A DNA stretch of 64,000 nucleotides from an uncultured Candidatus Saccharibacteria bacterium. GTDB lineage: Bacteria > Patescibacteriota > Minisyncoccia > Phycocordibacterales > UBA9973. This document shows, piece after piece, positions 3,902 through 58,211 of the stretch; position 1 is the first letter of the stretch; each line of letters opens with the position of its first letter. The stretch is taken from assembly GCA_964496425.1 (NCBI GenBank), contig CAZBZO010000004.1, forward strand, positions 23,118 through 87,117, given 5' to 3'. The translations under genes and the position numbers were made by a program. The notes below the pieces were generated by a model that saw only the letters and a list, made by a program, of their open reading frames with translations, made no database searches and had not been told where the DNA came from.

Positions 3902-3933
3902 ATCAGGCTTCGGTCAGATTTACTCGCTTTTTC
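3894..3933. terminator. perfect 11-bp hairpin (gcgagtaaatc/gatttactcgc) followed by tttttc, lying between the convergent amidase and trmD genes
   Basis: Inverted repeat read directly from the sequence. The first arm overlaps the amidase stop codon. Confidence 0.6.
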
Positions 3934-4606
3934 TTTGCTTCCACTTCTCTATTTCCTTATGATTCCCGGAAAGCAGTACTTTCGGCACGCGGTACTTTTT
4001 TTTATTATGAACCAGAATTTCTGGTCGAGTATAAAATTCACTTGATGAGATGCGTTCTTCTTCGAGCGATTCGAATTTGCCCAGTACTCCTGGAATCTGG
4101 CGAGATAGTGTATCAATCAGTATCATAGCTGGCAATTCCCCTCCTGTTACAACATAGTCCCCGATGGAAATTTTTTTAGTCTTCAATATTTTGTCCACAC
4201 GCGCATCAATACCTTCATAGCGGCCGCATAAAAGAATAATATCGGTATGTTTTTTTGCCACATTTTTTACATACGCGGTGGTGAGTTTTTCCCCTGAAGG
4301 TACGAAATTAACGATGAGCGTTTTTGATTTTTTATTTTTTTTAATTCTTTTTTCGATATGCTCTACCGCTTTCAAAATCGGCTCGGCGCGCATGATCATC
4401 CCCGGTCCCCCGCCAAACGGCCGATCATCCACGATCGCAGAAATGTTGCCGTCTGGCCAGACCTTTTTGTACTTGCCCACCACAAACTTCCGTGGATTGT
4501 AAAAATCCACCTTGATTTTTTTTTCTCGTATGGCCCGACCAATAATCGATTCTTTCAAATAGGAATCAAAGGATTCCGGGAAAATAGTAACTATATGATA
4601 GTTCAT
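3920..4606 (-). CDS. trmD: tRNA (guanine37-N1)-methyltransferase TrmD
   Basis: MNYHIVTIFPE..., ...GGGPGM..., LLCGRYEGIDARV, GDYVVTGGELPA. The ORF extends to 4669, but the conserved N-terminus starts at the Met at 4606. Confidence 0.9.
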   Translation of the reverse strand: MNYHIVTIFPESFDSYLKESIIGRAIREKKIKVDFYNPRKFVVGKYKKVWPDGNISAIVDDRPFGGGPGMIMRAEPILKAVEHIEKRIKKNKKSKTLIVNFVPSGEKLTTAYVKNVAKKHTDIILLCGRYEGIDARVDKILKTKKISIGDYVVTGGELPAMILIDTLSRQIPGVLGKFESLEEERISSSEFYTRPEILVHNKKKYRVPKVLLSGNHKEIEKWKQRKSE

Positions 4607-4650
4607 AGGCTGTAGGGTATAGGTTTTAGCAAAAAATGCAAATTGGATAG

Positions 4651-4684
4651 TACGACAAAAGCCGCCCATGGGCGGCTTTTGTCT
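4651..4684 (-). terminator. hairpin aaaagccgccc-atg-ggcggctttt between the KH gene and trmD; possibly an attenuator or internal terminator
   Basis: GC stem with T-runs readable on either strand. Confidence 0.45.
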
Positions 4685-4696
4685 TCACTTTAAAAC

Positions 4697-5017
4697 TTAA
4701 ATTCCTTTCAAATCTGCCATTGCTTCGTCCACTGAACTAGATGATGGTGCAGCACTCCCACTCATGTGCGTGCTTCCTTCTGGCTCGTTGATCTTCAGAT
4801 TCACGCGAGCATTGTTTTTCATGCCAATGACGCGAAGAAGCGTGCGGATCGCCTTGGCAGTGTTGCCCATGCGTCCGATGACCTTGCCCATGTCGGCAGG
4901 ATTTACAGAAAGCGTGATAAGTACACCCATTTCATCCACTGTGCGATCAATCTTTACATCAGAAGGGTTATCGACGAGAGATTTGACCACGTACTCAAGA
5001 AATGCTTTATCTTCCAT
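4697..5017 (-). CDS. KH-domain RNA-binding protein (KhpA/YlqC-like)
   Basis: 106 aa with VIGRMGNTAKAIRTL, the KH GXXG-like core. It sits in the canonical position between rpsP and trmD. Confidence 0.8.
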   Translation of the reverse strand: MEDKAFLEYVVKSLVDNPSDVKIDRTVDEMGVLITLSVNPADMGKVIGRMGNTAKAIRTLLRVIGMKNNARVNLKINEPEGSTHMSGSAAPSSSSVDEAMADLKGI

Positions 5018-5079
5018 ATGTTTGCTGTACGGTCTATTTGTATTTTAATGCAGCGTTTCGACTTCGACTGCTTATAGCT

Positions 5080-5108
5080 AGTATAGTATGACCAAAAGCG
5101 AGTGTCAA
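5080..5108 (-). promoter_or_regulatory. sigma70 consensus promoter TTGACA-17-TATACT, reading toward the KH-trmD genes
   Basis: On the minus strand: ttgaca (5108-5103), a 17-nt spacer, tatact (5085-5080). It lies about 55 nt upstream of the KH start codon. Confidence 0.6.
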
Positions 5109-5138
5109 TAAAAAAGAAGCAGTCATATCGACTGCTTC
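5107..5138 (-). terminator. rho-independent terminator after the propeller-repeat gene (gaagcagtc-atatc-gactgcttc, then a U-run on the minus strand)
   Basis: 9-bp stem. The minus-strand downstream sequence is cttttttatt. Confidence 0.6.
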
Positions 5139-5158
5139 TTCCTCTACAAAAGAGGATT

Positions 5159-6712
5159 TTACATTTTCTGAATTTTCTTACTTACATATGTACCATTATT
5201 TTTAATAATACTGATGATATACATACCAGGCAAAAAATTCTTTGTGTTAAAGTTATTACCTTCTATCCCCACCAACCGAACTCGTCCTATCACGTCGGTT
5301 ATTGTTACCATTTGGAAGTTACCTTCAATCACAATATAGTCGGTAAAGGGATTTGGGTAAACCTTATAATCACTATTAGTAGTAGAAATAACACCGGTTG
5401 GAATTGAACGTTCAAGCATGGCAACCCATATATCGTACTCACCATGGTTGCCTGTAACATCACCGTCAATCGACATACTATGTCCTGCGACGATATAGGA
5501 TCCATAGGAAGTTTGTGTAATTACACATATTCCCCCTTCGACTTCTGTGCCACCGAGGCATTTCTGCCATTCTATATCTCCATCGATAGTGAGTTTCAAT
5601 ATCCAAAAATCATACCAGCCGTGATTACCAGACACATCGCCGTCATTGGACATAGTTGCTCCCGCAACAATATATCCGCCATCAATCGTTTGCTTTACCG
5701 AAAACGATTGGTCGTCCGACACACCACCGAGTGATTTTTGCCATTGGATATTTCCCACTGTATCAAGCTTCACAATCCAATAATCATTACCCCCGTGATT
5801 GCCGGTAACATCAAAGTTAAGGGAACTAGCGTTGCCAGATAAAATATATCCTCCGTCAATCGTTTGTTCAATTGAGTATCCTGCAACATCAATGTCGCTC
5901 CCGCCAAGGCACTTCTGCCACTGTATTACTCCAACCGAATCCAATTTCACCACCCAATAATCAGAGCTGCCATGAATTCCGGAAACATCACCGTTTGATG
6001 AATACGTCCAACCACTGGCGATGTATCCACCATCTTTTGTCTGCCGAATACAAAAAGGGAAATCCACAGATGTGCCTCCCAATGATTTTTGCCATTCGAT
6101 GTTCCCTACGGCATCTAACTTGGCTATCCAATAATCCAAATTGCCGTGGTTGCCAGAAACATCACCATCATTCGAAGCTGAAGCTGAAACTACGATGTAA
6201 CCACCGTCATTCGTTTGGCGAACAGAAAAGGACTCTTCGTCTTCGGTGCCACCAAGGCATTTCTGCCATTCAATAATTCCAAGCGTGTTAATTTTAACGA
6301 CCCAGGTATCGGTCATGCCGTGGTTACTTGAGACATCAAAATCATTAGAGTAACTGAAGCCCGATACAATAAATCCTCCATCAGCAGTCTCTGTAATAGA
6401 GCGTGCTTGATCGGAGCCGCTGCCACCCAAAGACACCTGCCAGATCAGATTTCCACTGGTATCAATTTTTACAATCCAGAAATCATGATCTCCATGGTTA
6501 CCGGACACATCACCGTCATCTGAGTTGCTATAGCCGGCAAAAACGAAGTTGCCATCTGAGGTTGGAGTAAGTGCATACACCACCTCGATGCTACTCCCAC
6601 CAAAGGATTTTTCCCATTTGATTTCAGGCGCTTGCGCTTGTGCAAAATAAAAAGAAAAAATCAATGCCGCACAACTCATGGCTGTCAGCAGGAAATTGGA
6701 AAACTGTTTCAT
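5159..6712 (-). CDS. secreted repeat protein with about 9 tandem ~55-aa propeller-like repeats and a C-terminal T9SS type-A (Por) sorting domain
   Basis: Repeats of consensus W(Q/E)KSLGG(S/T)..D...SI.QT.DGGYI..G...S.DGDVSGNHG..D.W(V/I)VKLD..G.I. The C-terminus YKVYPNPFTDYIVIEG...VTITDVIGRVRL...FLPGMYIISI...NGTYVSKKIQK matches the T9SS CTD pattern. A signal peptide follows the Met at 6712. Confidence 0.75.
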   Translation of the reverse strand: MKQFSNFLLTAMSCAALIFSFYFAQAQAPEIKWEKSFGGSSIEVVYALTPTSDGNFVFAGYSNSDDGDVSGNHGDHDFWIVKIDTSGNLIWQVSLGGSGSDQARSITETADGGFIVSGFSYSNDFDVSSNHGMTDTWVVKINTLGIIEWQKCLGGTEDEESFSVRQTNDGGYIVVSASASNDGDVSGNHGNLDYWIAKLDAVGNIEWQKSLGGTSVDFPFCIRQTKDGGYIASGWTYSSNGDVSGIHGSSDYWVVKLDSVGVIQWQKCLGGSDIDVAGYSIEQTIDGGYILSGNASSLNFDVTGNHGGNDYWIVKLDTVGNIQWQKSLGGVSDDQSFSVKQTIDGGYIVAGATMSNDGDVSGNHGWYDFWILKLTIDGDIEWQKCLGGTEVEGGICVITQTSYGSYIVAGHSMSIDGDVTGNHGEYDIWVAMLERSIPTGVISTTNSDYKVYPNPFTDYIVIEGNFQMVTITDVIGRVRLVGIEGNNFNTKNFLPGMYIISIIKNNGTYVSKKIQKM

Positions 6713-6782
6713 ACGAACGTTTTTTGGTTTAATTTTTGAAGAAATAGAATTTGTCTCCCAAACCATACCACTCAAAACACAA

Positions 6783-6822
6783 AAGCGCAAGGCCGAGGGG
6801 CCGTGCGCTTTTGTTAGTATTT
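6783..6822. terminator. hairpin agcgcaaggcc-gagg-ggccgtgcgct flanked by A/T runs; a bidirectional terminator after rpsP
   Basis: Imperfect 10-bp GC stem with one mismatch. There is a T-run on both strands. Confidence 0.5.
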
Positions 6823-6831
6823 TTTTGATTA

Positions 6832-7137
6832 TTACGCTGCTTTCAATTCTTTGCGTTTCTTGGTTGGACTCTTGCGTGGAAGGACATTTTTCTTGCGGCC
6901 TTCAACGAGTTTTTTTGAAATGAGGAAATTCTGCATAGTATCCGAAGTCTGTGCGCCGACACTCATCCAATATTTGATGCGGTCTTCTTTTAAGGTCACT
7001 TCCCCTTTCTTTGGATCGTACGCACCGAGGATTTCCAAAAAGCGCCCACTTTTGGTGCTGTTTTTTGAGTCCGTCAGAACGACTCGAAATGAGGCTTCGT
7101 TCTTACGGCCAATGCGCTGCAATCTGATCATTAACAT
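6832..7137 (-). CDS. rpsP: 30S ribosomal protein S16
   Basis: MLMIRLQRIGRKNEASFRVVLTDSK...ILGAYDP, classic bS16. Confidence 0.95.
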   Translation of the reverse strand: MLMIRLQRIGRKNEASFRVVLTDSKNSTKSGRFLEILGAYDPKKGEVTLKEDRIKYWMSVGAQTSDTMQNFLISKKLVEGRKKNVLPRKSPTKKRKELKAA

Positions 7138-7143
7138 CCCGCT

Positions 7144-7173
7144 ATCTTACCAGAATGGGCTTGAAAGGTCAAC
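7144..7173 (-). promoter_or_regulatory. sigma70-like promoter TTGACC-17-TAAGAT ending 6 nt before the rpsP ATG, which implies a leaderless rpsP mRNA
   Basis: On the minus strand: ttgacc (7173-7168), a 17-nt spacer, taagat (7149-7144), then agcggg-ATG. Confidence 0.45.
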
Positions 7174-7290
7174 AGGCCCTTCTGGGATATAGCTTTAGGA
7201 GGCTACAGAGCTTTTTGCTATACTAGGAAAAGCATTTGTTTTAAGCAATGCTACGACATTATTATTAATACTATAAAAATTTATATAGAA

Positions 7291-8055
7291 ATGAAAACAC
7301 AAAAAATAGTTACATCGTTGATACTGGTAGCTTTCTTGGCAACTGGCATTTCGGTCGCCCAAGCAGAAACACCAGCCTTGGATAAAATGGTAGCGCCACA
7401 AAAGCCTACTCTTATGCCAAAGCCATATGAGAATCCATCTGTGATGGTTCCCAAAGATCGCCCAATGCCGACAAGTGCAAGTGGTGTTATGCCAGTAAAA
7501 GGTGGTATCAGCCATCCGTTTGGGCAATTACCAGAAGTAGCAGAAGCCAATCGAGCTCGCGTACAGGCTATGATCGAAAGTCACAAAACAGAGATCACTG
7601 AACGACAAGACGCACTGAAAGCCAAACTTATTGAACACAGAGACCAATTGGCAGAGCGTTTTGGAGAAAAAAAGGCTGGAGAAATTGTACAGGTACGTGA
7701 AAATGTAGCTGAGCAATTTGGTGAAGTCTTGCTCAAACTCCGAAGTGCGGAAGAAAAGCTCGACAATCTACTCTCAATGCTTGAAGAACGCGGTATGGAT
7801 ACTGCAAGCAACCGTGCAGTATTTGAAACTGCCTCAAGTGATATCGCTGCAGCTGAAACCGCTATCGCCAATCTGCAAAATATCGCGGCAAGCGATACTG
7901 ACGGTGCAGCCACAGTAAAAGAAGCGGGTGCTCGCGCACGTACTGCTGTAGAAAAAGCAAAACAATCAACACTTGCTGCATTCACTGCAATCCGAACTCT
8001 TATTAGCGCCGAAGCTTCCGTGAAAACAAACACTGAAGCGACAGCAAGTAACTAA
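7291..8055 (+). CDS. secreted Ala-rich coiled-coil protein, unknown function
   Basis: Signal peptide MKTQKIVTSLILVAFLATGISVAQA, followed by helical heptad-like A/E/K-rich sequence. Confidence 0.6.
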   Translation: MKTQKIVTSLILVAFLATGISVAQAETPALDKMVAPQKPTLMPKPYENPSVMVPKDRPMPTSASGVMPVKGGISHPFGQLPEVAEANRARVQAMIESHKTEITERQDALKAKLIEHRDQLAERFGEKKAGEIVQVRENVAEQFGEVLLKLRSAEEKLDNLLSMLEERGMDTASNRAVFETASSDIAAAETAIANLQNIAASDTDGAATVKEAGARARTAVEKAKQSTLAAFTAIRTLISAEASVKTNTEATASN

Positions 8056-8070
8056 CACACATACAAATTT

Positions 8071-8343
8071 ATGGAACCAAACACAAACCCAGCCGCAACG
8101 ACGACAAATATCAACACCACAGTGACAGACAAGAGCAGCAATAAAATGGTTGTAGTACTCATCATACTCGTTGCCATCGTTGCTTTAGCCTTCTATGTCA
8201 TGAAGCAAAAGGAAAGCGCGATGATCACACCACAAAATCCATCTCAGCAATCAACTGGCGATGACACACTCGATGAGCTCAATAGTATTGAAGCAGATCT
8301 CAATAGTGTCGACACCGCCACACTCGACGCCGGCCTCGAATAA
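8071..8343 (+). CDS. small single-pass membrane protein
   Basis: 90 aa with a central TM segment VVVLIILVAIVALAFYV. It is followed by a terminator. Confidence 0.5.
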   Translation: MEPNTNPAATTTNINTTVTDKSSNKMVVVLIILVAIVALAFYVMKQKESAMITPQNPSQQSTGDDTLDELNSIEADLNSVDTATLDAGLE

Positions 8344-8360
8344 ACATTTTGTAAGTCTCA

Positions 8361-8390
8361 AAAAAGGCTCGTATGAGCCTTTTTTGTTTG
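8361..8390 (+). terminator. rho-independent terminator (aggctc-gtat-gagcct followed by tttttg)
   Basis: Hairpin plus T-run immediately after the stop at 8343. Confidence 0.6.
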
Positions 8391-8437
8391 CCTTAAAACA
8401 TACAAATACCCTAGAAAAGATATGTTATGATAGAAAA

Positions 8438-10360
8438 ATGAAGAATACTAAAGAGCCAAAAAAGAGCGCTCCGGCTTTGATTGGCACTATTTCTCTTACC
8501 AGTAAAGGCGTCGGCTATGTCCGTCTTTCTGCAAGTCTTGAGGATGATATTGAGATTGAAAATAGATTTTTGCGCACGGCACTTCACGGCGACACCATAG
8601 AACTTCTCCTTCACCCACGGCGACCCAAACAGCGTACGACCGGCGAAGTGGTCAGTATAATTTCTCGAGCCAAGGCAGGCTTTGCAGGTACACTGATCGT
8701 TGAGGGCGACACTCTTGTCCTCGATGCGGACGACCAAAAACTTTACACCTCGATCTTGGTACCAAAAGCAAATCTTCATGGCGCCAAAGCAGGAGAGAAA
8801 GTATTCGTAAAAATTATTTCTTGGCAGGATCCAAAAAAACTACCCTTAGGAGAAGTCGCGCAAATATTGGGCGCGCCGGGCGAACATGAAGCTGAGATTG
8901 CGGCAATTTCGCTAGAAAAAGGATTCAATTCGCTTTTTCCCAAAGATGTCGTCGATGAATCAGAGCGGTTAGATCATAAGATGCCAGATATTTCTAGCCG
9001 CCGAGATTTTCGCACTACGCCGACCTTCACTATCGATCCGTTTGACGCCAAAGATTTTGACGATGCACTTTCAGTTCTCAAACTTCCAGACGGCAAATTT
9101 GAGATTGGTATCCATATTGCTGATGTGTCTCACTACGTGCGCCCAGGCAGTGCAATTGATAAAGAAGCATTTAAACGCGCAACATCGGTGTATCTTGTCG
9201 ATCGCACGATTCCCATGCTCCCAGAAATACTTTCCAACGATCTCGCAAGCCTGAAGCCTGATGTTGATCGCCTCACGATGAGTGCAGTGTTTATCATGGA
9301 TATACATGGCGCCATTCACGGAGAATGGTACGGCAAGAGTATTATCCATTCCGATAAGCGTTTTACCTATGAAGGAGCGCAAGAAATACTTGATGCAAAG
9401 CAAGGTGAATTCTATAGCGAGCTTCATACATTAAACAAACTTGCCAAAATCCTTGAAAAAAACAGACTCGCCGACGGCGCTTTAGTGCTTGAAACAGAGG
9501 AAGTAAAATTCGAACTCGATAAAAAAGGAGTACCGATTGCTGTCTACAAAAAAGTCCGTGGCGATACGCACAAGCTGGTAGAAGAATTCATGCTCCTTGC
9601 GAACCGAAAGGTAGCTGAGTTCATTACAAAAAAATCAAAGAAAAATATTTTTATTTATCGTGTCCATGACCTGCCGGACCCTGACAAACTTGCTGATTTA
9701 AAGAGCTTTTTGAGCCAGCTCGGTCATAAGATTTCGGGAACAGGAAAAGTCTTGCTGGCAAAAGACTTGAGCACCTTTTTAAAACGCATTGCGAGCCATC
9801 CAGAGAAAAGTATGATTGAAATGACGATCGTGCGCTCGATGGCCAAAGCCGTATACTCAACGACCAACATCGGCCACTATGGCTTAGCTTTCAAACACTA
9901 CACGCACTTTACTTCCCCAATCCGCCGGTATCCGGATTTGGCTGTGCATCGGCTCTTGGAAAGTTATCTTTCAGGTCATTCACCCAAACCAGAATCAATC
10001 AAAACCTACGACGAGATCTCACGACATTCATCGGTACAAGAAAAGAAAGCTGCTGAAGCCGAACGTGCCAGCGTGAAATATAAGCAAGTAGAATACATGA
10101 GCAAACGCATCGGCACTACACTTACTGGTACTATTTCTGGGGTGACCGATTGGGGGCTCTATGTGGAAGAAAAAGAAACAAAATCAGAAGGCATGATTCC
10201 TATCCGCAACTTGGGCGCCGAATATTTCACATTCGATAAGACAAAAATGGCTATTATCGGACAAAAAACTCGTACCCGCTATCGCTTGGGTGACACGATC
10301 CGCATTAGTGTTGCCGAAGCGAACCTCGGTACCAAAACGATCACTTATGCGCTTGCTTAA
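8438..10360 (+). CDS. rnr: ribonuclease R (RNase II/R family 3'-5' exoribonuclease)
   Basis: RNB-domain motifs (IDPFDAKDFDDALS, HIADVSHYV, LVEEFMLLANRKVA, GHYGLAFKHYTHFTSPIRRYPDLAVHR) and a C-terminal S1 domain. The start is taken at the ATG at 8438, because the upstream in-frame region overlaps the previous gene. Confidence 0.9.
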   Translation: MKNTKEPKKSAPALIGTISLTSKGVGYVRLSASLEDDIEIENRFLRTALHGDTIELLLHPRRPKQRTTGEVVSIISRAKAGFAGTLIVEGDTLVLDADDQKLYTSILVPKANLHGAKAGEKVFVKIISWQDPKKLPLGEVAQILGAPGEHEAEIAAISLEKGFNSLFPKDVVDESERLDHKMPDISSRRDFRTTPTFTIDPFDAKDFDDALSVLKLPDGKFEIGIHIADVSHYVRPGSAIDKEAFKRATSVYLVDRTIPMLPEILSNDLASLKPDVDRLTMSAVFIMDIHGAIHGEWYGKSIIHSDKRFTYEGAQEILDAKQGEFYSELHTLNKLAKILEKNRLADGALVLETEEVKFELDKKGVPIAVYKKVRGDTHKLVEEFMLLANRKVAEFITKKSKKNIFIYRVHDLPDPDKLADLKSFLSQLGHKISGTGKVLLAKDLSTFLKRIASHPEKSMIEMTIVRSMAKAVYSTTNIGHYGLAFKHYTHFTSPIRRYPDLAVHRLLESYLSGHSPKPESIKTYDEISRHSSVQEKKAAEAERASVKYKQVEYMSKRIGTTLTGTISGVTDWGLYVEEKETKSEGMIPIRNLGAEYFTFDKTKMAIIGQKTRTRYRLGDTIRISVAEANLGTKTITYALA

Positions 10361-22742: not shown

Positions 22743-24278
22743 CTACTCGACGGGTTCCTCTTCATCCAAAAGACCGAGTTGATTGGCGCGCTCAGACAAG
22801 GCAGAATAGATATCTTGTTGCATTTTTTGTTGCAAATACGCTGAACGTTCATACCTGAAAAAAAGTACCTTCCAATACGGTATGCGTTGTGAATCTGTAA
22901 GTGTTTTAAACTCAGAAAAAAGCGTGGCAAGTGCGTTGCGCATGTTCTGCGCTATAGTATCGAGTACTTCAAACAACTCCTTATGATGAGAGAAATAAGC
23001 GCCTATCATCCGTCTGTCGCCGCTAAAGAAAATCGAGGTTAGTTTTATCGACAAATCTTCGATCTCGGGTTTGATAGTTATCTCTTTCGTAAAATAATTT
23101 TCATGAATTTGGTTAACAAGCGTTTGATTCAAATCTTCAAACTCTTCTTCCAAATTACCTAAGGAAGTATTGCTTTCTTTACTTGCATCGAAGATAGTTG
23201 CAATTTCTTTATAGTGACTACCAGGATTTCTTTCTTCTTGTTTTAATGCTTCCCGAATAATGTATGTCAGCTCATCATATAAACCATTATTCTGCAAATT
23301 GCTAAAATCAGTAGATGCAAAATTATGCTCGCCAAAAATAGTCTCGAGATTTTTTACCGTTAACCCTGAATCTGACGATGATTCATCATTTGGTGAATGG
23401 CGTAGTAGAGAGTACATATCTATTTTGTCATCAACTTTCATGTGTATTAAGTCTCTTTGGAAAAGAATATGCACCAAAGCATTGACCGTGTGGCGAGCAA
23501 TCGCTACATCACGTCTATCTTCGAAGTCATAGATATCTTTATCGGATCGCATAAATTGTCCAGCGCCTCTTGTAGACCGAGTATTTGCAGAGAGCCAAAT
23601 AGACTTCTCGTATTTACTCTGAAGATCGGCATAGTATTTTGAAATAAAATGCTCCTCGAGAACGTTTTTTGTTGATTCCCGAGTCACACGAAACATGCTG
23701 CGCATATACTCATTGTCGAGGATTTGCTCTTCTGTTTTTTCGTTTCCGCTCCCGCTTCCAACATACGCAAGTACCTCTTTTTTATCCGCAAGTTTCAATC
23801 CGAACCATTCACTCGTCGTTTGAATGCCGCTTTTACGAAGGAGCGCCAGGGCACGAAAAATATTTTCGTTGCCATGCTCTTTGGCAATGCTATTTTGAAG
23901 TATTTCAAAACCTCTCTCGTCCAATGCCGCAAGGTCGGGGTACGGTAACATCATTCTTTGTTTTTGAGATTTATCATTAAGATCATGGTCTTCGAGATCG
24001 TTTGCATGCACCAGCCAGTCATAATAATATGGCTCGCTTAGAGCAAGATTGCTACCATTTCTCCCCTCAGGGACGTGTTCAAGTATATTAACTATGTTTT
24101 TCTTAAACTCATTGGAAACAGGCTTATCACGATAATCAAACACTGATGACATATGCAATCGGTGGAGCTTTCCGACGAGATCTTGTTTTGAAGAACGCAT
24201 ACGCTCCCTAGCTTCTGGCGAAGTAAAATAGGAAGGTGGAAGAGAAAGTGTATGACTGTGGGGAAGCTGTTCGTGCAT
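22743..24278 (-). CDS. hypothetical protein, 511 aa, no recognisable domain
   Basis: Long clean ORF convergent with thrS. Acidic and helical; I see no motif. Confidence 0.65.
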   Translation of the reverse strand: MHEQLPHSHTLSLPPSYFTSPEARERMRSSKQDLVGKLHRLHMSSVFDYRDKPVSNEFKKNIVNILEHVPEGRNGSNLALSEPYYYDWLVHANDLEDHDLNDKSQKQRMMLPYPDLAALDERGFEILQNSIAKEHGNENIFRALALLRKSGIQTTSEWFGLKLADKKEVLAYVGSGSGNEKTEEQILDNEYMRSMFRVTRESTKNVLEEHFISKYYADLQSKYEKSIWLSANTRSTRGAGQFMRSDKDIYDFEDRRDVAIARHTVNALVHILFQRDLIHMKVDDKIDMYSLLRHSPNDESSSDSGLTVKNLETIFGEHNFASTDFSNLQNNGLYDELTYIIREALKQEERNPGSHYKEIATIFDASKESNTSLGNLEEEFEDLNQTLVNQIHENYFTKEITIKPEIEDLSIKLTSIFFSGDRRMIGAYFSHHKELFEVLDTIAQNMRNALATLFSEFKTLTDSQRIPYWKVLFFRYERSAYLQQKMQQDIYSALSERANQLGLLDEEEPVE

Positions 24279-31607: not shown

Positions 31608-32351
31608 ATGGAAAACAAATTTAAAAACATAATAGAAAATAACCAATTTAATACAAATTTTAAGAGATTAAGAAATTTTCTGGTTGCTTCGTTAGCTGTT
31701 TTTTCACTTAATAAAGCGGAAGGTCAAGCACTCAAAAAAGATTTGATGATAAGCCCAGAACAACAAATTTCAATTATAAATGAGATACGCACCATTGATA
31801 GTTTGGTGCTAGAGCTCACAGATCGTTTTGGTAATAAACAATCATTGACTGAATTGGTAAACGAAAAGGAAAAAAGCCTCGCGGGTCAATATGGAGAAGA
31901 TTATGTGAATAAATATGTATCTGCGACAGACCCTAGATTTGTTGTTTACAGATACGGAACTAATATAGAAGGTCCAGTTGAATTTAAAGATGAAAATTTT
32001 CCCGCTGATTATCCTATAAAACAATATCGATATTACGGTTCGCATGGTAATGATATTTATATAGGTGATAAAAAATGTGAAATCGTTTGTAGTTATGCGT
32101 ATGAATCATCAACCGATTCTACAAAACAAAACATAGTAAATGTTATAGATTATTCGGGAGATATCCCACTTACTGAAAAGTGTAACGATACTTTAAATTT
32201 TGCAAAGTTCGGCTATACTGAATCTGAATCTACAGATGTATCATTAAATAATAAAATGTCTGTTCATAACTATACATATGAGGATTTGATTGAGAATCTT
32301 AACAATGTAAATGCTTTAATAAAATTAGAAATTTCTAAAAAAAGTAAATAG
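31608..32351 (+). CDS. hypothetical secreted protein encoded in an AT-rich insert
   Basis: 247 aa with an N-terminal hydrophobic segment LVASLAVFSLNKAEGQ. The region 31460-32460 is visibly AT-richer than its flanks. Confidence 0.5.
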   Translation: MENKFKNIIENNQFNTNFKRLRNFLVASLAVFSLNKAEGQALKKDLMISPEQQISIINEIRTIDSLVLELTDRFGNKQSLTELVNEKEKSLAGQYGEDYVNKYVSATDPRFVVYRYGTNIEGPVEFKDENFPADYPIKQYRYYGSHGNDIYIGDKKCEIVCSYAYESSTDSTKQNIVNVIDYSGDIPLTEKCNDTLNFAKFGYTESESTDVSLNNKMSVHNYTYEDLIENLNNVNALIKLEISKKSK

Positions 32352-42832: not shown

Positions 42833-43648
42833 TTAGATAGGCAGAAAACAACCATCTTCTTTTCTAAAAGAATCTCCGTTCACTAAATTTAGTACTACAG
42901 TTATATCCTTGCATTCATCATCACCCGGTCTACCTTCTTTGTAAGTGCCGAACAAGACAGGCGTGCCTGGATCAAAACCGTAAAAGGGTTCCCCAAAATA
43001 TAAAAAGTCAGTTTGAATACCGTAACTTTTAATTAGTTCGCCTCCTATCTTAGATTTAAGATTTTCCAACGCACTAGCAAAATCAGAGAAATAAAGATGC
43101 TCTATGGGAATAATGTTTAATGGTGGGTCACTTTTTACTATTTTATCTCTCATCATTAGCAAAAAAGAATCGTAGGAAATTGGTTGATTTTTAATATTAT
43201 TGAAGTTTGGGTCCGTATCTTTTTGGTAATAATGGAAATAATAATTTGAGATTAATTCATCTCTTCTTTTTATCGTCATCCAGTCAATATTCAAAAAATA
43301 ATTTATTTCTACAAAATCAGTACTATTAGGCTGATCCACGAAAACTTTTTCTATTTTAATATGATCTTTAATATAGTTTTCTGTTACGCCGTAATTTTCC
43401 TGTAAATACCTCTTCCAATACGATATGTAGGTTTCACAATGGATGTCGGGGCAGGTAAAATCAAGCAAATTAAGGTACGTTTCATTGTTCTCTGCCACGA
43501 AAGCAGTGATTTTATCTTCTAAAGAACCGGATTTGACTTGTATAGGGAATGGAGATAGTCCAACCTTCTCCAATAGAAATACTTGAAAACCTATTATCAC
43601 AATAGCAATAATTGTAATTACTAAAAATATTTTTGTTGATTTTTTCAT
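42833..43648 (-). CDS. N-terminally anchored hypothetical protein, AT-rich gene
   Basis: 271 aa with an N-terminal TM segment. The sequence is N/K/Y/F-rich. Confidence 0.5.
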
Positions 43649-46712: not shown

Positions 46713-48005
46713 CTATGGGTTTTTGATCACTCCCATAAATATTATTTCTTGAGTTTGAGTATCTCGGATCGAGACAAAAAACGGCCGATTAACTTCCATG
46801 TAAAATGTTTTTTCAGTATTAACTCCAGCCGAAGTGAGACCCACGCCAATACTGGTCACCGCAGCAGCTTCAGTACCTTCTTCATTTACATCAATGTATG
46901 TCTTGTGTTTAACTTCACTTATGACGAGTCCTTCACCAATACCAGAAAAATCAGCGCCGCTAAAAGCGACCCCCATACCAAGTTGTGTCAAAAGTGGAAT
47001 GAGGCTTTTTTCGTACTCCATTTTAAATTTTGGAAGCAAAATCGTTCCCTCAGTCGTTTGATATTTATTTATCCAGCTATTCCAGGTGGTTGCCGTGAGG
47101 TTTTGAACAAATGAATCGAGATTTTTGGGTAAGAATACGTCCATGACAATGCGCTTACTTTTCCCATACGGCATACTAATACTTTGGAAATCCACCGTTT
47201 CCAAATATGAAAAATCACCTCGTTGCTGCATGAGTGGATGCTTCTTTGCAACACCAGAAGAAAGAGTAAAGTCTCGCTCTTGAGTCATAGACGTACTAAA
47301 TTCACTTGTCCATGTGCCTTTAAAATAAATAGCATTGATTAAATACATGACCATTGTGGAAGGAATCGGCGGAGTGACAATCGTCTGTATCTTACCTTTG
47401 GTATTTTTACTTACCCAAGCATTTATCGTGTCAGCAGCCGTAGGAGCTTCAAAATTAAGTGTTGAGATTTCGGCATTGAAATAATTCGCAACGATAGTAA
47501 GAAAATCTTTTTTAAAATCCATACCCTTTCTCGCCCACAGAGAGTTGGCGACCGATAGTTCTACGTCGGGATCAGGATTTTTCAAGATATTGATAAGCCC
47601 CAGACTTTCTTGATTGACCGTCGCGAGGTCGAGATTCTGAAACTGCAAAGTGTTTTGTATGGCAGTCTTAGTCTCTCCTGCCGCACCGTTATAGACCATT
47701 GACAATGCAAGAGCAATACTTGATGGCGAAATGAAAATATTATTTTCATTTGCATCTTCTACAAGGATTTTCAAGCTATTAAATCCGAATGTAGTGTGGG
47801 CAAGTGAAATATTTTTCGGAGCTTGAGATTGGACAGATGGATTCGGGGTCGGAATTGGTACAACGCTATCATCGACATCACCAATTGGTACCACTTCAGG
47901 TATTTTTTCTATAGAACTTTTCCGTAAAACAAGGTAGCCGCCGGCGCCCGCAATAAGAAGAATAACAATAAGGATACCAAGAGGAGCAAAACCTTTTTTA
48001 TTCAT
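46713..48005 (-). CDS. serpin (serine protease inhibitor) with an N-terminal anchor or signal
   Basis: NAIYFKGTW and the C-terminal FYMEVNRPFFVSIRD serpin signatures. A reactive-centre loop region is present. Confidence 0.85.
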   Translation of the reverse strand: MNKKGFAPLGILIVILLIAGAGGYLVLRKSSIEKIPEVVPIGDVDDSVVPIPTPNPSVQSQAPKNISLAHTTFGFNSLKILVEDANENNIFISPSSIALALSMVYNGAAGETKTAIQNTLQFQNLDLATVNQESLGLINILKNPDPDVELSVANSLWARKGMDFKKDFLTIVANYFNAEISTLNFEAPTAADTINAWVSKNTKGKIQTIVTPPIPSTMVMYLINAIYFKGTWTSEFSTSMTQERDFTLSSGVAKKHPLMQQRGDFSYLETVDFQSISMPYGKSKRIVMDVFLPKNLDSFVQNLTATTWNSWINKYQTTEGTILLPKFKMEYEKSLIPLLTQLGMGVAFSGADFSGIGEGLVISEVKHKTYIDVNEEGTEAAAVTSIGVGLTSAGVNTEKTFYMEVNRPFFVSIRDTQTQEIIFMGVIKNP

Positions 48006-48077
48006 ATGATAATAGTATCACCATAGATTCAGTCCAGCAAATTTAACTATACACCATAAACTATTACCTACTATTTG

Positions 48078-48159
48078 TGGGCGCGGAGAGATTTGAACTC
48101 TCAAGAGTTTCCCCATACGCTCCTGAAGCGTACGCGTATACCAGTTCCGCCACGCGCCC
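48078..48159 (-). tRNA. tRNA-Leu (anticodon CAG)
   Basis: Manual fold: acceptor GGGCGCG/CGCGCCC, 3-bp D stem with an 11-nt loop, anticodon stem TACGC/GCGTA with loop TTCAGGA, 13-nt variable arm, T arm GAGAG-TTCAAAT-CTCTC, discriminator A. The CCA is not encoded. Confidence 0.85.
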
Positions 48160-53312: not shown

Positions 53313-53927
53313 TTATTTTTTGATAAGAGGCAAGATTGCATCTTCGAGCCGCTCGGCAATCTTGGCATAGCCGGCATCATTGGGATGAATAGCGTCAGAC
53401 ATATATGCACTGTTTCCAAGGAGACCACTTAAAATGTTAGGTATATACGACAAATCATAGTCTTTGGCAATCGAGGCATACATTGGCGCAAATGGGTCCG
53501 AAAGGACTCCGCCTCGCACACCCACCAAGACCACCACCGTACCATTGGCCTCAAGCTGACTGACAATGTTCCTGATATTTTCTTCCGTCGCCTCGATCGG
53601 TACTTTTTTGAGAAAGTCATTACCACCAACCAACAAAATGACAAGCCCTGGATCACGATCGAGCACCGCACTGATCCGGGCCAATGCATCAGCGGACGTG
53701 TCGCCGTTTTTCCCAAAATTTTCAATCGGTACGCCAAGACTCGCCCCGAGCACTGACACAAAGTCATGCCCCGGTGTCGCTCCGTAGCCCACCACCAAAC
53801 TATCGCCAAATGCCACGATCGTATTATTTTTTATTTCCGGCACCGGCTCTCCACCACACAAAAAGAAATATCCAGCCACTACGGCCAGTATCACCACCGC
53901 CCCAATTCCAATCCCCCACTTTTTCAT
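53313..53927 (-). CDS. SGNH/GDSL hydrolase (arylesterase-like)
   Basis: AFGDSL, GGNDF, DAIHPN. N-terminal TM segment. Confidence 0.85.
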   Translation of the reverse strand: MKKWGIGIGAVVILAVVAGYFFLCGGEPVPEIKNNTIVAFGDSLVVGYGATPGHDFVSVLGASLGVPIENFGKNGDTSADALARISAVLDRDPGLVILLVGGNDFLKKVPIEATEENIRNIVSQLEANGTVVVLVGVRGGVLSDPFAPMYASIAKDYDLSYIPNILSGLLGNSAYMSDAIHPNDAGYAKIAERLEDAILPLIKK

Positions 53928-54931: not shown

Positions 54932-55792
54932 TTATTCTAAGATTTTATAATTTGGTATTTTATAGTTTTCTTTTAACCAAAGAAAGTAATCATCGTTAGC
55001 TTTAGGATTTAAGTGTTTTAACAACTGCTTACCAACAGGAGAAAGTCCAAAGAATCCAGGCATACTAATTTTTAGTGTATTTACATCCTCTGGTGTAGTC
55101 GGTGAAAATAAAATGACTTTATCAAAGTAAACAGTCTTAAAATTTTTCTTCTCAGGATTTTCCATTGATTCGGTCATATCATTTGGCAAAAATAGTGCAA
55201 GACTTTGCAATAACTGAAGACTCCCAAAGTCCACTGCAAGTTCATTCATAAATCCTTTAGCATTTTCGGGTAAAGAAAATAAGTCTTGTGGTACCTGATA
55301 ACCATTTACTAATAAACTGCATATTTTTTCAAATAACTCCAGCTCACTTTTGCCAAGCATTTTAATAATTTGGAGCATGCTCATTGAGTAAGTGCCGGGC
55401 GCGTTATATTCTCCTGCAAGAATCTTTGCTATCAATTCTTGCATTTCGTCATTTGAAATTCCTTTGGCATGATCAAGAAACCCCCAAAAAACATCGTTAT
55501 CCATGCCGACCTCGCTAGGTTTTGAAGAATCAATATACTTTGTTGCTCTTGCTCCAATGTTTATTAGGTTTGTGTTTGACCTAAAAGCAGAAACATATTG
55601 AATAGCCAGACCTTTTTCTTTTGCATCGTCGTACCCATCAAGAATATGTTTTTTGATTACCCCACCCTGTGCATTCCATTCGCTTATTTTAAAACCAAGC
55701 AACTTATCAATCACTGTCGAAAATAATGGTGTGTTGGCTACTTTAGTGGAGTTTTCAATTGCAGTAGTAAGTGCTGTTGTTGGATCAATCAT
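54932..55792 (-). CDS. hypothetical protein co-transcribed with the Type IIG RM gene (4-nt gap)
   Basis: 286 aa with no motif recognised. The gene is AT-rich. Confidence 0.6.
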   Translation of the reverse strand: MIDPTTALTTAIENSTKVANTPLFSTVIDKLLGFKISEWNAQGGVIKKHILDGYDDAKEKGLAIQYVSAFRSNTNLINIGARATKYIDSSKPSEVGMDNDVFWGFLDHAKGISNDEMQELIAKILAGEYNAPGTYSMSMLQIIKMLGKSELELFEKICSLLVNGYQVPQDLFSLPENAKGFMNELAVDFGSLQLLQSLALFLPNDMTESMENPEKKNFKTVYFDKVILFSPTTPEDVNTLKISMPGFFGLSPVGKQLLKHLNPKANDDYFLWLKENYKIPNYKILE

Positions 55793-55796
55793 ATAT

Positions 55797-58211
55797 TTAT
55801 TTTTTCAAAAACCCTAATTCATATACTTGCGGTTCTAGTTTTTCAGAAAGTTTTTTATATACATTTTCAAAATCAACAAAGCTAACTTTTGTAAAATCAC
55901 CACTGTCATTTCTTTTCTTGAGTGCATTCCTTATTTGATACCATCCCACATCTGGTCGATTTAATTTTAATTCATCTCTCACGCTACGTTCATCAGTATG
56001 TGCGAAATATGATTGCCACAACTTCTTACCTTCTTCGAGTGCAGCACGAGCTTCTGCGGAAAATTCTTTTCCCTGCATATACTCAACCATAAAGTTGGAC
56101 TCGAAACGGTCAGGAGCTCCAACTTCTTCTTCAGTAAATGGTATAAAATGATTTACAATTGACCACTTCTTATCATTCCACTCCAAATCATTAGCACTCG
56201 CTGTTAGATTGCTTCCATTAAATAGCATCCAAATCAAACAATCATTTTTGAATTCGTCAGTAAGTTCGCCAGTTGGTTGTAAAAATTGATCACGATCATT
56301 TTGCCATGTAGGTTTAACAATACGGCGCACGGTTAGAATGATTGCAGTTTTTAATAAGTTGTCTGCATTTACGTAAAAACCATCGCCCTGGCTGTATACA
56401 GACGAAAACAGCACTGTCTGGTTTACATTTTGCATGTCACTTGCTTTAACCCAAAAGTAGCCTATCGCACCGTCGGACCATTTTGACAACCGCACTTTAC
56501 TTGTAGTGGGAGTAACCGCTGATTTTAGGGGGACAACTTCAGTGTCATTAGGTTTTGGTCGTTGCACCCAAAGATTTAAGTAAGTTGATGACGGTAAATT
56601 ATAGAATACTTTCTCTCCAATTGGACGCGCCTCTTTATCAAGAACATCAACTGTTATTTTTGAGATTTGACTGAGATGTCCATCACCATGGCTTGTTCGC
56701 CATACAAGAAAACCAATTGGGAAGTTACCCTTCAGGCCTTCAAAAGATTTACTGTGAACAATGAAACCGCCAAGATAGTCAGCATCCCATTGCTTACGAA
56801 ATTCCTCAAAATTAGGAGCATTTACATATTTCAGCTTACTAAACATTGCAAGAGTTGCCTGTGGTATTTCTTTTGCAATTCGAGTAGCAAACTGAGTAAA
56901 CAATTCTTGGCTTGCTTTACCATACCCAGTCATACCAACCTCTCCATACTTAGTTTTTGCAACATTATCTTTACCTTCTTTACCAAGCGTACTTCCTGCT
57001 TCCGCATAAGGTGGATTAATCAGCACCAAAATTTTCTTTCCACTCTTTATTACCTGCTGTAGTGCTTCTGGGATTTTATTCGTTATGCTGTAGTCAATTT
57101 TTCCGTCATCAGTGATGTCATCGTTGAGATAGTCGTATTGAAATTTTGTAGCTGCAACACATGTCTTGGTAGCACGCATAACATTAATATCTGGAGCATC
57201 AAGCGTGCTCATATAAATATTGCGCGGATTCGAATGCTTTACTTCAAGGTTTCCTACACCACAGCACATATCCCAAACTATGTATTCTTGTTGCCAATTG
57301 TCTCCCAATACTTCAGTGAGTTTGTCATATGCCTTATCTACCACATGAAGAGGTGTATAGTATGCCCCCTTAAAACTTCGTTCATCAACTGGAATCAAAC
57401 TATCACGTCGTTCAAGTAGATAGTCACGATATTCCTGTTTTGGTGGCTTGTCATAGATTGCCCAAAACTTCCGATACCCCTCTTTGTTTCCTAATTCATA
57501 AATAACCCCTCCAAGAGCAAATACGGCTGCCCCATTTTTATGCAACAACTCAGCGGGAAGATTTTGATGAGTAGACACCGTACCGTCATGCATAATATCA
57601 GCAAAGAAAAGGAGGGCATAATCTTCAGGATTTACACCCTTTATTTCTTGTCCGATCATTGCAACCCACTTATCAAAAACTTGCTTCAGATTATCTGGAG
57701 TAATTTGTGTACGAACTATATCTCCTGTTTTGATAGCACTTTTTATGGCCGCTAGAAATTCTTTTTCGTGTGTAGAAATCTTATAAGAGACGAAATGCGC
57801 ACCAATGTATGCGGAAACAATATCAAGAGCTTCTTGGGTATAGCTACTCGCAGATTTACCCCATTTTATAATTTTCTTTTCAAGCAATGGAAGAGCATCT
57901 TCAGTCTTCATAATTGCAGCTTTTTCAGTATCAATGACACACAGAAAAGGTGGAATTTTTTCTCCTCGATCAAGGGCAGCTTGAATGTAATGCAAAAGCT
58001 GTGTGAACATTTCATATGTTGTGGTATTGCTTTTATCTTTTGCTTCAAACCATACTTCATCCGTTTGGATGTCAATCAGGTTTTTATGAAAACCTTTAAG
58101 ACCAATGGCTTTAATATAAGCGTCTTTGACGTCTTCCTCACTTTTTGCTTTCTTTAATGTTTCGTAGAGAGTCATACATTTATAATTTGATGGCTGAATA
58201 AGTTTTTCCAA
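55797..58211 (-). CDS. Type IIG restriction-modification enzyme, MmeI-like (N-terminal PD-ExK nuclease, gamma-class N6-adenine MTase, C-terminal specificity domain)
   Basis: N-terminus LID(47)...E(56)AK(58) fits a D-x8/9-E-x-K nuclease motif. MTase motif X GAYYTPLHVV (aa 282), motif I WDMCCGVGNL, motif IV LINPPYAEAG, then about 350 aa of C-terminal domain. The gene is visibly AT-rich. Confidence 0.7.
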   Translation of the reverse strand: MEKLIQPSNYKCMTLYETLKKAKSEEDVKDAYIKAIGLKGFHKNLIDIQTDEVWFEAKDKSNTTTYEMFTQLLHYIQAALDRGEKIPPFLCVIDTEKAAIMKTEDALPLLEKKIIKWGKSASSYTQEALDIVSAYIGAHFVSYKISTHEKEFLAAIKSAIKTGDIVRTQITPDNLKQVFDKWVAMIGQEIKGVNPEDYALLFFADIMHDGTVSTHQNLPAELLHKNGAAVFALGGVIYELGNKEGYRKFWAIYDKPPKQEYRDYLLERRDSLIPVDERSFKGAYYTPLHVVDKAYDKLTEVLGDNWQQEYIVWDMCCGVGNLEVKHSNPRNIYMSTLDAPDINVMRATKTCVAATKFQYDYLNDDITDDGKIDYSITNKIPEALQQVIKSGKKILVLINPPYAEAGSTLGKEGKDNVAKTKYGEVGMTGYGKASQELFTQFATRIAKEIPQATLAMFSKLKYVNAPNFEEFRKQWDADYLGGFIVHSKSFEGLKGNFPIGFLVWRTSHGDGHLSQISKITVDVLDKEARPIGEKVFYNLPSSTYLNLWVQRPKPNDTEVVPLKSAVTPTTSKVRLSKWSDGAIGYFWVKASDMQNVNQTVLFSSVYSQGDGFYVNADNLLKTAIILTVRRIVKPTWQNDRDQFLQPTGELTDEFKNDCLIWMLFNGSNLTASANDLEWNDKKWSIVNHFIPFTEEEVGAPDRFESNFMVEYMQGKEFSAEARAALEEGKKLWQSYFAHTDERSVRDELKLNRPDVGWYQIRNALKKRNDSGDFTKVSFVDFENVYKKLSEKLEPQVYELGFLKK

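Follow-up and report, generated by a model that had tools for sequence, protein, structure and literature searches.

A gene for a 517-aa protein lies between rpsP (ribosomal protein S16) and khpA (KH-domain protein) in a 64,000-nt stretch of DNA (hereafter, the window: positions 23,118 to 87,117 of contig CAZBZO010000004.1, assembly GCA_964496425.1) that comes, judging from its other genes, from a bacterium of the candidate phyla radiation (CPR). The protein joins a predicted Sec-type signal peptide and a seven-bladed beta-propeller to a type-A C-terminal domain (CTD) of type IX secretion systems (T9SS). CTD proteins have been described as "restricted to" Bacteroidota, where more than 3000 type-A CTD proteins were counted in 104 genomes, and their distribution "strictly correlates", "with few exceptions", with the T9SS core of PorK/L/M/N, SprA/Sov, PorV, and PorU (PMC10202324). 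We suggest that the gene is probably a T9SS cargo gene of the Bacteroidota type that was acquired horizontally by one Paceibacteria/Nomurabacteria-like lineage, in which its product would be exported through Sec only and its CTD would be inert. The position of the gene had been predicted in an earlier note made from the letters of the window, and it was confirmed here by an intact open reading frame (ORF) between two neighbours that Pfam identifies.

A signal peptide, a propeller, and a T9SS C-terminal domain

The gene and the parts of its product are listed below, with coordinates of the window.

5159-6712, minus strand: inserted gene, 517 aa (1554 nt), an intact ORF with the ATG at 6712 and the stop codon at 5161-5159
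6635-6712, minus strand: predicted Sec-type signal peptide, aa 1-26, MKQFSNFLLTAMSCAALIFSFYFAQA followed by QAPE, with Lys in its n-region, followed by a hydrophobic core and an AQA motif
5399-6631, minus strand: seven-bladed beta-propeller, aa 28-438, seven repeats of 58-59 aa (AlphaFold, period of the DNA, match to CylK)
5162-5377, minus strand: T9SS type-A CTD, aa 446-517, a seven-strand immunoglobulin (Ig)-like sandwich (PF18962, TIGR04183, AlphaFold)

The AlphaFold model of the protein, which was built from an alignment with 50 full-length homologues (A1), has a mean predicted local distance difference test (pLDDT) score of 91.5. The signal peptide was judged by inspection of the sequence and its cleavage site is a predicted one; an N-terminal Sec signal is also what CTD cargo proteins carry, and helix 2-23 is detached from the fold in the model, matching the signal peptide. 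The propeller consists of 28 strands, with residues 31-433 forming seven four-stranded blades. Each repeat follows the pattern S-N-D-G-D-V-S-G-N-H-G ... D-x-W-V-V-K-L ... G-x-I-x-W-Q-K-x-L-G-G, the W-x-K-x-LGG motif recurs at W33, 91, 149, 207, 265, 324, and 382, and the period in the DNA is 174-177 nt, with copies that are 61-74% alike. About nine repeats of about 55 aa had been proposed in the earlier note, but the seven motifs and the seven blades of the model give seven repeats of 58-59 aa. The SNDGDVxGNHG loop is invariant in every blade, which suggests a candidate repeated ligand- or metal-binding site.

A linker of low confidence in the model (residues 439-445) leads to the CTD. PF18962 (Por_Secre_tail) matches aa 451-514 of 517 with 32.9 bits (cut-off 27), and TIGR04183 matches the C terminus with 31.7 bits (cut-off 23), or 37.1 bits when only the last 80 aa are used. 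Both curated models make the domain a genuine type-A CTD of the T9SS, and the assignment in the earlier note, for which a search with the last 80 aa had been proposed as a check, is thus upheld. The type-A CTD fold is a seven-strand Ig-like beta-sandwich (PMC10202324), and the model has seven strands at 450-516 with a block pLDDT of 83-94. The family profile also matches the solved T9SS CTDs 8glk_D (1e-8) and 8glj_D (4.9e-7), as well as mirolase 8qb1_A. The sequence motifs of the domain are YPNPF (motif B, PNP), D-x-x-G-R (TDVIGR), G-x-Y (PGMYII), and a lysine-rich end, SKKIQKM, with KKIQK; YPNPF, TDVIGR, PGMYII, and SKKIQKM all fall in consensus columns of the 50 homologues. These features matter for recognition, and secretion requires motif B (PNP) along with the lysines that motif E has at the C terminus (PMC10202324). 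The 517-aa protein has neither a membrane helix at its C terminus nor an LPXTG motif, and no domain for binding peptidoglycan.

Homologues in Bacteroidota

A search over 5.8 billion proteins gave, at high identity, nothing but the protein (as clusters of 506 and 517 aa), followed by thousands of homologues at 40-57% identity. Those aligned end to end (coverage 97-100%, identity 42-53%) have the same architecture. Nine of the 11 matches that carry an organism name are from Bacteroidota, namely Ulvibacter antarcticus, Bacteroidia (e.g., MEO8147399.1), Bacteroidales, Chitinophagales, and unclassified Bacteroidetes/Bacteroidota bins; the other two, from Kosmotoga and Methanoregula, match in the propeller only and have different C-terminal domains. 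The 72-kb contig that encodes the best full-length match, P0021, has genes for PagL and a CHU_C (type-B CTD) protein next to it, a context that is, by these genes, diderm and T9SS-type.

The closest known counterparts are the propeller T9SS type-A proteins of Bacteroidota (about 510-540 aa; MEO8147399.1, which is P0106, the Ulvibacter antarcticus protein P0020, and P0021), which have the same architecture from end to end: a signal peptide, seven repeats of about 58 aa with SNDGDVxGNHG and WQKxLGG, and a type-A CTD. The propeller of the protein is 52% identical to those of the homologues, which are 54% identical among themselves, and for the CTD the corresponding values are 24% and 23%. The score of its CTD is low in the family range (rank 46 of 51), and the domain is about 8 residues shorter than the family consensus. 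Judged on its sequence, fold, and architecture, the protein belongs to the Bacteroidota family as an ordinary member, and it departs from it in its context, since the host belongs to the CPR and not to the diderm Bacteroidota and no T9SS genes lie within the 64 kb. The Bacteroidota propeller family is itself functionally uncharacterised. Bacteroidota have been found to be among the more frequent donors from outside the CPR to Patescibacteria in groundwater (PMC12455944).

Insertion into the rpsP-khpA spacer

On the minus strand, the order of genes is rpsP, the 517-aa ORF, khpA, and trmD. The neighbouring genes and the elements between them are as follows.

6832-7137, minus strand: rpsP, 101 aa, the upstream neighbour (PF00886 Ribosomal_S16, 1.3e-17; 57-75% identity to RpsP of Paceibacteria loci)
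6779-6814, minus strand: intrinsic terminator hairpin of rpsP, with a U-rich tail to about 6771 (inverted repeat; −25.3 kcal/mol, z −7.47), ancestral
6713-6778, minus strand: leader of the inserted gene, 66 nt, lacking a Shine-Dalgarno sequence and any promoter that reaches the scan threshold
5110-5156, minus strand: terminator of the inserted gene, an inverted repeat with adjacent hairpins at 5140-5156 and 5115-5139 and a T-run at 5110-5114 that abuts the −35 box (double hairpin at 5115-5156, −23.5 kcal/mol, z −5.05)
5080-5108, minus strand: khpA promoter, TTGACA-17-TATACT, matching at 11 of 12 positions, ancestral
5050-5071, minus strand: hairpin of the khpA 5' leader, GCAGUCG-AAGUCGAAA-CGCUGC, with GUCG in the loop, conserved and ancestral
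4697-5017, minus strand: khpA, 106 aa, the downstream neighbour (PF13083 KH_KhpA-B, 4.2e-21)
4654-4683, minus strand: khpA terminator (fold −26.6 kcal/mol, z −5.91)
3920-4609, minus strand: trmD, 229 aa (PF01746 tRNA_m1G_MT, 2.2e-35; at most 76% identity to TrmD of Candidatus Nomurabacteria/Paceibacteria metagenome-assembled genomes (MAGs))

For comparison, a scan seeded with TrmD, over a single genome for each GTDB species, yielded 80 loci. Nearly all of them are titled Candidatus Nomurabacteria, Candidatus Paceibacteria/Paceibacterota, Minisyncoccia, or Patescibacteria, and many are SRA-derived bins labelled "uncultured Candidatus Saccharibacteria". Identities to these related loci are 57-76% for TrmD, 57-75% for RpsP, and 64-86% for KhpA; because the best TrmD match is 76% identical, the host species is not in the scanned genome collection. 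On these markers the host is a CPR bacterium of the Paceibacteria/Nomurabacteria-like kind, in agreement with the earlier remark that the remaining genes look CPR-like.

It had been assumed that rpsP and the KH gene are normally adjacent, and the synteny comparison bears this out. The two genes occur together on 61 of the related loci with a median gap of 135 bp (at most 260 bp in 57 of them), and none of the 61 has a homologue of the inserted gene in the spacer. The gene is therefore a lineage-specific insertion into an otherwise adjacent pair. In the 14 relatives whose spacers were read, the order is the rpsP stop codon, a GC-rich terminator hairpin, a −10 box, a conserved hairpin with the consensus GCAG-gu-UGUA[GUCGA]UACA-CUGC, about 45 nt, and the khpA start codon, and in the relatives without the insert the −10 box (GATATAAT/TATACT) stands at the matching distance from the khpA leader hairpin. 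As relatives without the insert carry both the rpsP terminator and the khpA promoter in the same order, these elements are ancestral, and the insert has split them, leaving the rpsP terminator on one side and the khpA promoter with the leader hairpin on the other. What the insert brought is the 66-nt leader, the ORF, and the double-hairpin terminator, with no clear promoter; the best candidate found by eye in the leader is TTGGGA-18-AAAAAT (8 of 12 positions).

These results alter the picture drawn in the earlier note of a self-contained transcriptional unit dropped into an operon. The insert does have a terminator of its own, as had been stated. The consensus promoter of khpA is also where it had been placed, but it is not fresh, as it is present in relatives without the insert; likewise, the rpsP terminator that had been taken as a boundary of the unit exists as a hairpin but is ancestral and not insert-borne. 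With ancestral elements on both flanks and no recognisable promoter of the gene itself, the description as a self-contained unit is not supported. The genes of the rpsP-khpA-trmD "cluster" each already have their own terminator in the host lineage.

The four exceptions among the 61 loci hold unrelated material in the rpsP-khpA spacer.

L034, 2803-5615: insert of 2.8 kb with a 324-aa RVT_1 reverse transcriptase and a 247-aa ORF of unknown kind
L067, 4432-5639: insert of 1.2 kb with a 2OG-Fe(II) oxygenase
L049, 328-1045: insert of 0.7 kb, unrelated material
L023, 4502-4958: insert of 0.44 kb, unrelated material

Because these four relatives carry other inserts there, the spacer is a recurrent landing place. 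The gap between the KH gene and trmD is also variable, exceeding 400 bp in 22 of the 61 related loci and holding an IS200-like Y1 transposase in L028. The insert in the window does not look like a mobile element: it is a single gene, it has no flanking repeats beyond chance, and its GC content and codon usage are host-like. A target-site duplication was considered and rejected, as the 10-mer AAGCAGTCGA is the only exact repeat of the flanking type and chance alone would give about 1.6 pairs of this kind in 1.8 kb. The two copies of this 10-mer (minus strand), at 5064-5073 in the khpA leader hairpin and at 5128-5137 in the terminator hairpin of the insert, bracket the khpA promoter.

Taken with the homologues, which are mostly T9SS cargo of Bacteroidota, the lack of the gene in all 61 relatives makes horizontal acquisition, which the earlier note had put forward, the best explanation.

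Composition and assembly

The same arrangement is present on six contigs, from the NCBI metagenome assemblies JACCDY, JACCDT, and JACCEA and the Logan runs SRR10036056, SRR10036059, and SRR10036065, and over both junctions these match the window at 99.86-100% identity. There are no single-nucleotide polymorphisms in the inserted gene among the six, which is uninformative on selection. The gene has a GC content of 42.3% and a GC3 of 39.4%, and the genes of the window have 43.7±4.3 and 41.6±7.2, respectively. In synonymous codon usage it ranks with the most host-typical genes, at a distance of 0.101 (rank 41 of 45 by distance from the window pool). The host-like codon usage suggests either a transfer that is not very recent or a donor with similar usage.

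It is hardly conceivable, in our estimate, that a Bacteroidota gene was misassembled onto a CPR contig or that the bin is at fault. The source assemblies are very large metagenomes, and the tetranucleotide profile of the gene correlates poorly with that of the window (0.65 vs 0.82±0.06). However, a low correlation is expected of an internally repetitive gene, and we therefore rejected it as a sign of foreign origin; moreover, the junctions are identical on six separately assembled contigs and both lie exactly between regulatory elements of the ancestral spacer. As the separate assemblies are near-identical and the composition is host-like, a chimera is very unlikely. The lack of a Shine-Dalgarno sequence was also rejected as a signature of Bacteroidota, as 40 of 45 host genes likewise have none.

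Comparison with other propeller proteins

The only clearly homologous solved propeller is that of CylK (PDB 7FH6, 7RON), a Friedel-Crafts alkylating enzyme of cylindrocyclophane biosynthesis. The match has a profile E value of 8e-34 over residues 30-438, and by Foldseek an E value of 2.8e-24 with 25% identity and a root mean square deviation of 3.8 Å. In CylK, an N-terminal domain of about 250 aa precedes the aligned residues 255-664 and builds the active site jointly with the propeller, whereas in the inserted gene's product the signal peptide leads directly into blade 1. CylK also has no CTD. Since the N-terminal domain is missing, the enzymatic activity of CylK should not be carried over to the protein, and only the fold is shared.

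The SBBP or "delta-60" propeller proteins (PF06739; the NF047494 LipL53 family) are a distantly related repeat type (NF047494, E 1.2e-11). Membership in this group was rejected, as NF047494 reaches 44 bits vs a cut-off of 400 and PF06739 has no match at E ≤ 1. One SBBP propeller protein is encoded in a Nomurabacteria locus (L083, 7877-10837, plus strand) and matches the propeller hidden Markov model (HMM) at 1e-45 with 27% identity. It has 987 aa with SBBP repeats, DUF7948, InlB-type B-repeats, and a C-terminal PG_binding_1 domain, and its gene lies 1.2 kb downstream of trmD. This protein shows that CPR bacteria deploy secreted propellers; however, the native propeller is anchored by PG_binding_1, and the inserted gene's product ends in a CTD instead.

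A second CTD family in the CPR

An HMM made from the CTDs of the 50 homologues was scanned against stop-to-stop ORFs of two samples, the window with the 80 trmD loci (0.87 Mb in all) and 80 further gyrB-seeded Paceibacteria-like metagenome loci (1.11 Mb). One CTD protein besides that of the inserted gene was found in this related DNA of about 1.9 Mb. The genes of its family are as follows.

L028, 9008-10534, minus strand: OGI72260.1 (UniRef100_A0A1F6VRG7), 509 aa, of Candidatus Nomurabacteria RIFCSPHIGHO2_02_FULL_38_15, found with the CTD HMM
L087, 10001-11539, and L088, 8001-9536: CTD-family genes, in synteny with DUF192 and PAP_N/fn3
L170, 2540-4708, plus strand: P0138 locus, a CTD-family gene in another CPR-like MAG, with DUF192 and an unannotated 585-aa gene that replaces PAP_N/fn3

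The C terminus of OGI72260.1 matches the CTD HMM with 32.6 bits (E 1.5e-8) and the Pfam CTD model with 20.7 bits, which is below the cut-off. Its CTD aligns with that of A1 in hhalign with a probability of 92.8% (E 3.9e-7) and matches the solved CTD 8glk_D with an E value of 5e-4. Ahead of the CTD lie a signal peptide and an all-beta passenger without a Pfam family; the AlphaFold model of the endemic-family protein has a pLDDT of only 66 and was therefore not used for a fold search. Its relatives are P0122-P0127 and P0136-P0138, and those at 54-57% identity are encoded on contigs with an RpoB 68% identical to that of Nomurabacteria. The members have about 510 aa, with one of 722 aa. The gene order of DUF192, the PAP_N/fn3 protein, and the CTD protein is kept in L028, L087, and L088. 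Since the synteny is conserved and the contigs are Nomurabacteria-like, the type-A-like CTD has passed by vertical descent in these CPR bacteria. In L028 (16S at 7000-8633, plus strand) and in L170 (16S at 5025-6898, minus strand), the 16S rRNA gene and the CTD gene converge; the latter 16S gene spans 1874 nt vs a model of 1533 nt and hence carries an insertion.

A profile search over 1.84 billion representatives returned three full-length clusters of this endemic family and a few partial relatives, and no full-length homologues in Bacteroidota. About 70 further proteins match only its CTD segment, at their C terminus, and all seven of those tested match PF18962 above the cut-off. The CTD is the least conserved part of the endemic proteins (45% pairwise identity vs 63% for the passenger), most of the CTDs fall below the Pfam cut-off (17-22 bits), and PNP is lost in two members, which looks like relaxed constraint on a T9SS-specific surface rather than conservation of a signal; P0138, a partial or deep member, has a canonical CTD of 39 bits, above the Pfam cut-off.

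This family and the product of the inserted gene thus share a Sec signal peptide, a C-terminal type-A-like CTD, and the same CPR group. They differ in that the endemic family has an unrelated all-beta passenger, vertical inheritance, a location adjacent to 16S, and a CTD mostly eroded to below the Pfam cut-off. The comparison shows that the inserted gene is not the sole CTD gene in these organisms, and that CTDs persist in the CPR, if rarely. Both the gene and the Nomurabacteria family are exceptions to the restriction of CTDs to Bacteroidota. The UniRef name of OGI72260.1 is already [quoted passage not shown], and the bare fact of a CPR CTD protein is thus already in the databases. No literature that links T9SS CTDs (T9SS, Por_Secre_tail, TIGR04183) with Patescibacteria/CPR was found, nor any that treats the source runs or accessions.

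Export and the fate of the CTD

According to the interpretation that we prefer, the gene would have landed in a spacer of about 135 bp, exactly between the existing rpsP terminator and the existing khpA promoter, and for this reason neither neighbour was disrupted. Its terminator would have been kept from the donor or gained. Because there is no clear promoter, expression would probably rely on a weak promoter or on read-through from rpsP. CPR bacteria are considered to have no outer membrane (10.1101/2025.01.22.634366). The signal peptide alone would carry the protein across a single membrane to the outside, and the "unrecognised export route" considered in the earlier note would not be needed, because a Sec signal peptide suffices in such a cell. 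We know of no T9SS machine in single-membrane CPR cells, nor of a PorV/PorU to read or remove the CTD. Without an outer membrane or PorV/PorU, nothing would require the CTD or take it off, and it would most likely remain on the protein as an Ig-like domain that is inert. We would then expect a binding protein, with a lectin- or adhesin-like propeller, that is either released or loosely associated.

Several observations weigh against this interpretation. No donor closer than 57% identity was found among the 5.8 billion proteins, and the donor phylum, presumably Bacteroidota, is read from the distribution of the family and not from a taxon-labelled tree. The sigma-70-like promoter scan gave no promoter that reaches the threshold between the rpsP terminator and the ATG of the gene. 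The lack of T9SS parts among the about 47 window proteins with Pfam information, which is in favour of it, covers 64 kb only. The CTD of the protein has no sign of decay and keeps motif B (PNP) and the C-terminal lysines, as expected from continued use or from a transfer too young for erosion. The stable inheritance of the second family in the CPR argues that CTDs are not simply discarded.

A rival possibility is that the CTD is functional in the CPR as a sorting, anchoring, or interaction module with an unrecognised, T9SS-independent reader, for example, in attachment to the cell wall or an S-layer or in processing by a peptidase other than PorU. This would account for the endemic family with its C-terminal type-A-like CTD, for its synteny in L028, L087, L088, and more loosely L170, for the above-cut-off CTD of P0138, and for a CTD in the inserted gene's product that is no more diverged than those of Bacteroidota are among themselves. 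We regard it as unlikely, however, as CTD proteins are rare in the CPR DNA sampled, the erosion of the endemic CTDs and the loss of PNP look like relaxed constraint, and no candidate reader machinery is known. Quite unlikely, too, is that the gene is a silent or decaying relic, tolerated at a neutral intergenic site, barely expressed, and heading for loss. Its place directly behind a strong terminator without a promoter at the scan threshold, its presence in only one sampled lineage, the streamlined genomes of the CPR, and the unrelated cargo in the same spacer of other lineages would all fit a relic. However, the 1554-nt ORF is fully intact, with seven blades and a CTD predicted at high confidence, and has a well-formed terminator of its own; moreover, its codon usage is fully host-like, which takes time, and an unselected ORF would normally gain stop codons.

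It might also be proposed that the host is an epibiont of T9SS-bearing Bacteroidota and that the CTD docks on PorV or the attachment complex of the partner cell by mimicry or hijack. The gene family and the CTD are typical of Bacteroidota, which occur alongside Patescibacteria and serve them as gene donors (PMC12455944). In a published model, CTD motifs B, D, and E contact the extracellular loops of PorV (PMC10202324), and the CTD of the protein keeps these motifs. This proposal is nonetheless entirely speculative and highly improbable: no host is known for the lineage, and cultivated Paceibacteria relatives are reported to attach to methanogenic archaea. The wider view that T9SS-type CTDs are useful in the CPR, either as a handle for docking on or ligation by PorV/PorU of a Bacteroidota host or as an undescribed CPR tag, so that the inserted gene and the 16S-linked family would be one phenomenon, is in our judgement very unlikely.

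The inserted gene represents a clean and well-delimited transfer from Bacteroidota to Patescibacteria, if our reading of its origin is right, with the insertion site resolved to a spacer of about 135 bp between a terminator and a promoter. It also calls for caution in the curation of MAGs, where CTD matches may be taken as a proxy for the presence of a T9SS or for contamination with Bacteroidota. The gene could hint at the physical partners of uncultivated epibionts, and if the CTD were functional in the CPR, it would be a new use of a well-known secretion tag.

The khpA leader hairpin and other features of the window

The conserved hairpin in the spacer follows the −10 box immediately, at what is predicted to be the 5' end of the khpA mRNA, and has GUC(G/A) in its loop. 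It forms in 52 of the 65 regions upstream of khpA from Paceibacteria, with compensatory changes in the stem (GCAG/CUGC, CCAGA/UCUGG, UCAG/CUGA, AGUCUU/AAGACU, GGGG/CCCC, and GGGCAU/AUGCCU), and in L009-L086 it lies about 45-55 nt upstream of khpA. The hairpin was assessed by folding each sequence separately; MAFFT with RNAalifold gave no structure, the variable-length loops being aligned poorly. Rfam has no family above threshold for the hairpin or for any part of 4600-7300. It may be an undescribed cis-regulatory element, e.g., an autoregulatory site of KhpA.

The housekeeping genes of the window include those for DnaE, ThrRS, GyrB, PheS/T, SMC, RNase R, RNase III, and UvrD-like helicases, and its peptidoglycan enzymes are two Mur ligases, VanY, and amidases, one of them with PG_binding_1. 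A Shine-Dalgarno-like motif precedes 5 of 45 host genes, and a TATACT/TATAAT-like box stands 7-12 nt before the ATG of several genes, e.g., upstream of 16923, 44145, 46713-48005, and 53313-53927. The few motifs and the boxes close to the ATG suggest that leaderless mRNAs or mRNAs with a very short leader may be widespread in the host. A full-length serpin of 430 aa is encoded at 46716-48005 on the minus strand (PF00079, E 1.6e-107), adjoining a tRNA-Leu(CAG) at 48077-48159. Three regions have a low GC content compared with the mean of 43.7%: 31608-32351 on the plus strand (29.7%), 42833-43648 on the minus strand (32.1%), and 54932-58175 on the minus strand (35-38%). Their proteins have no Pfam family or a DUF only (DUF2806; a 792-aa protein without a match), and they are possibly other acquired or fast-evolving genes.

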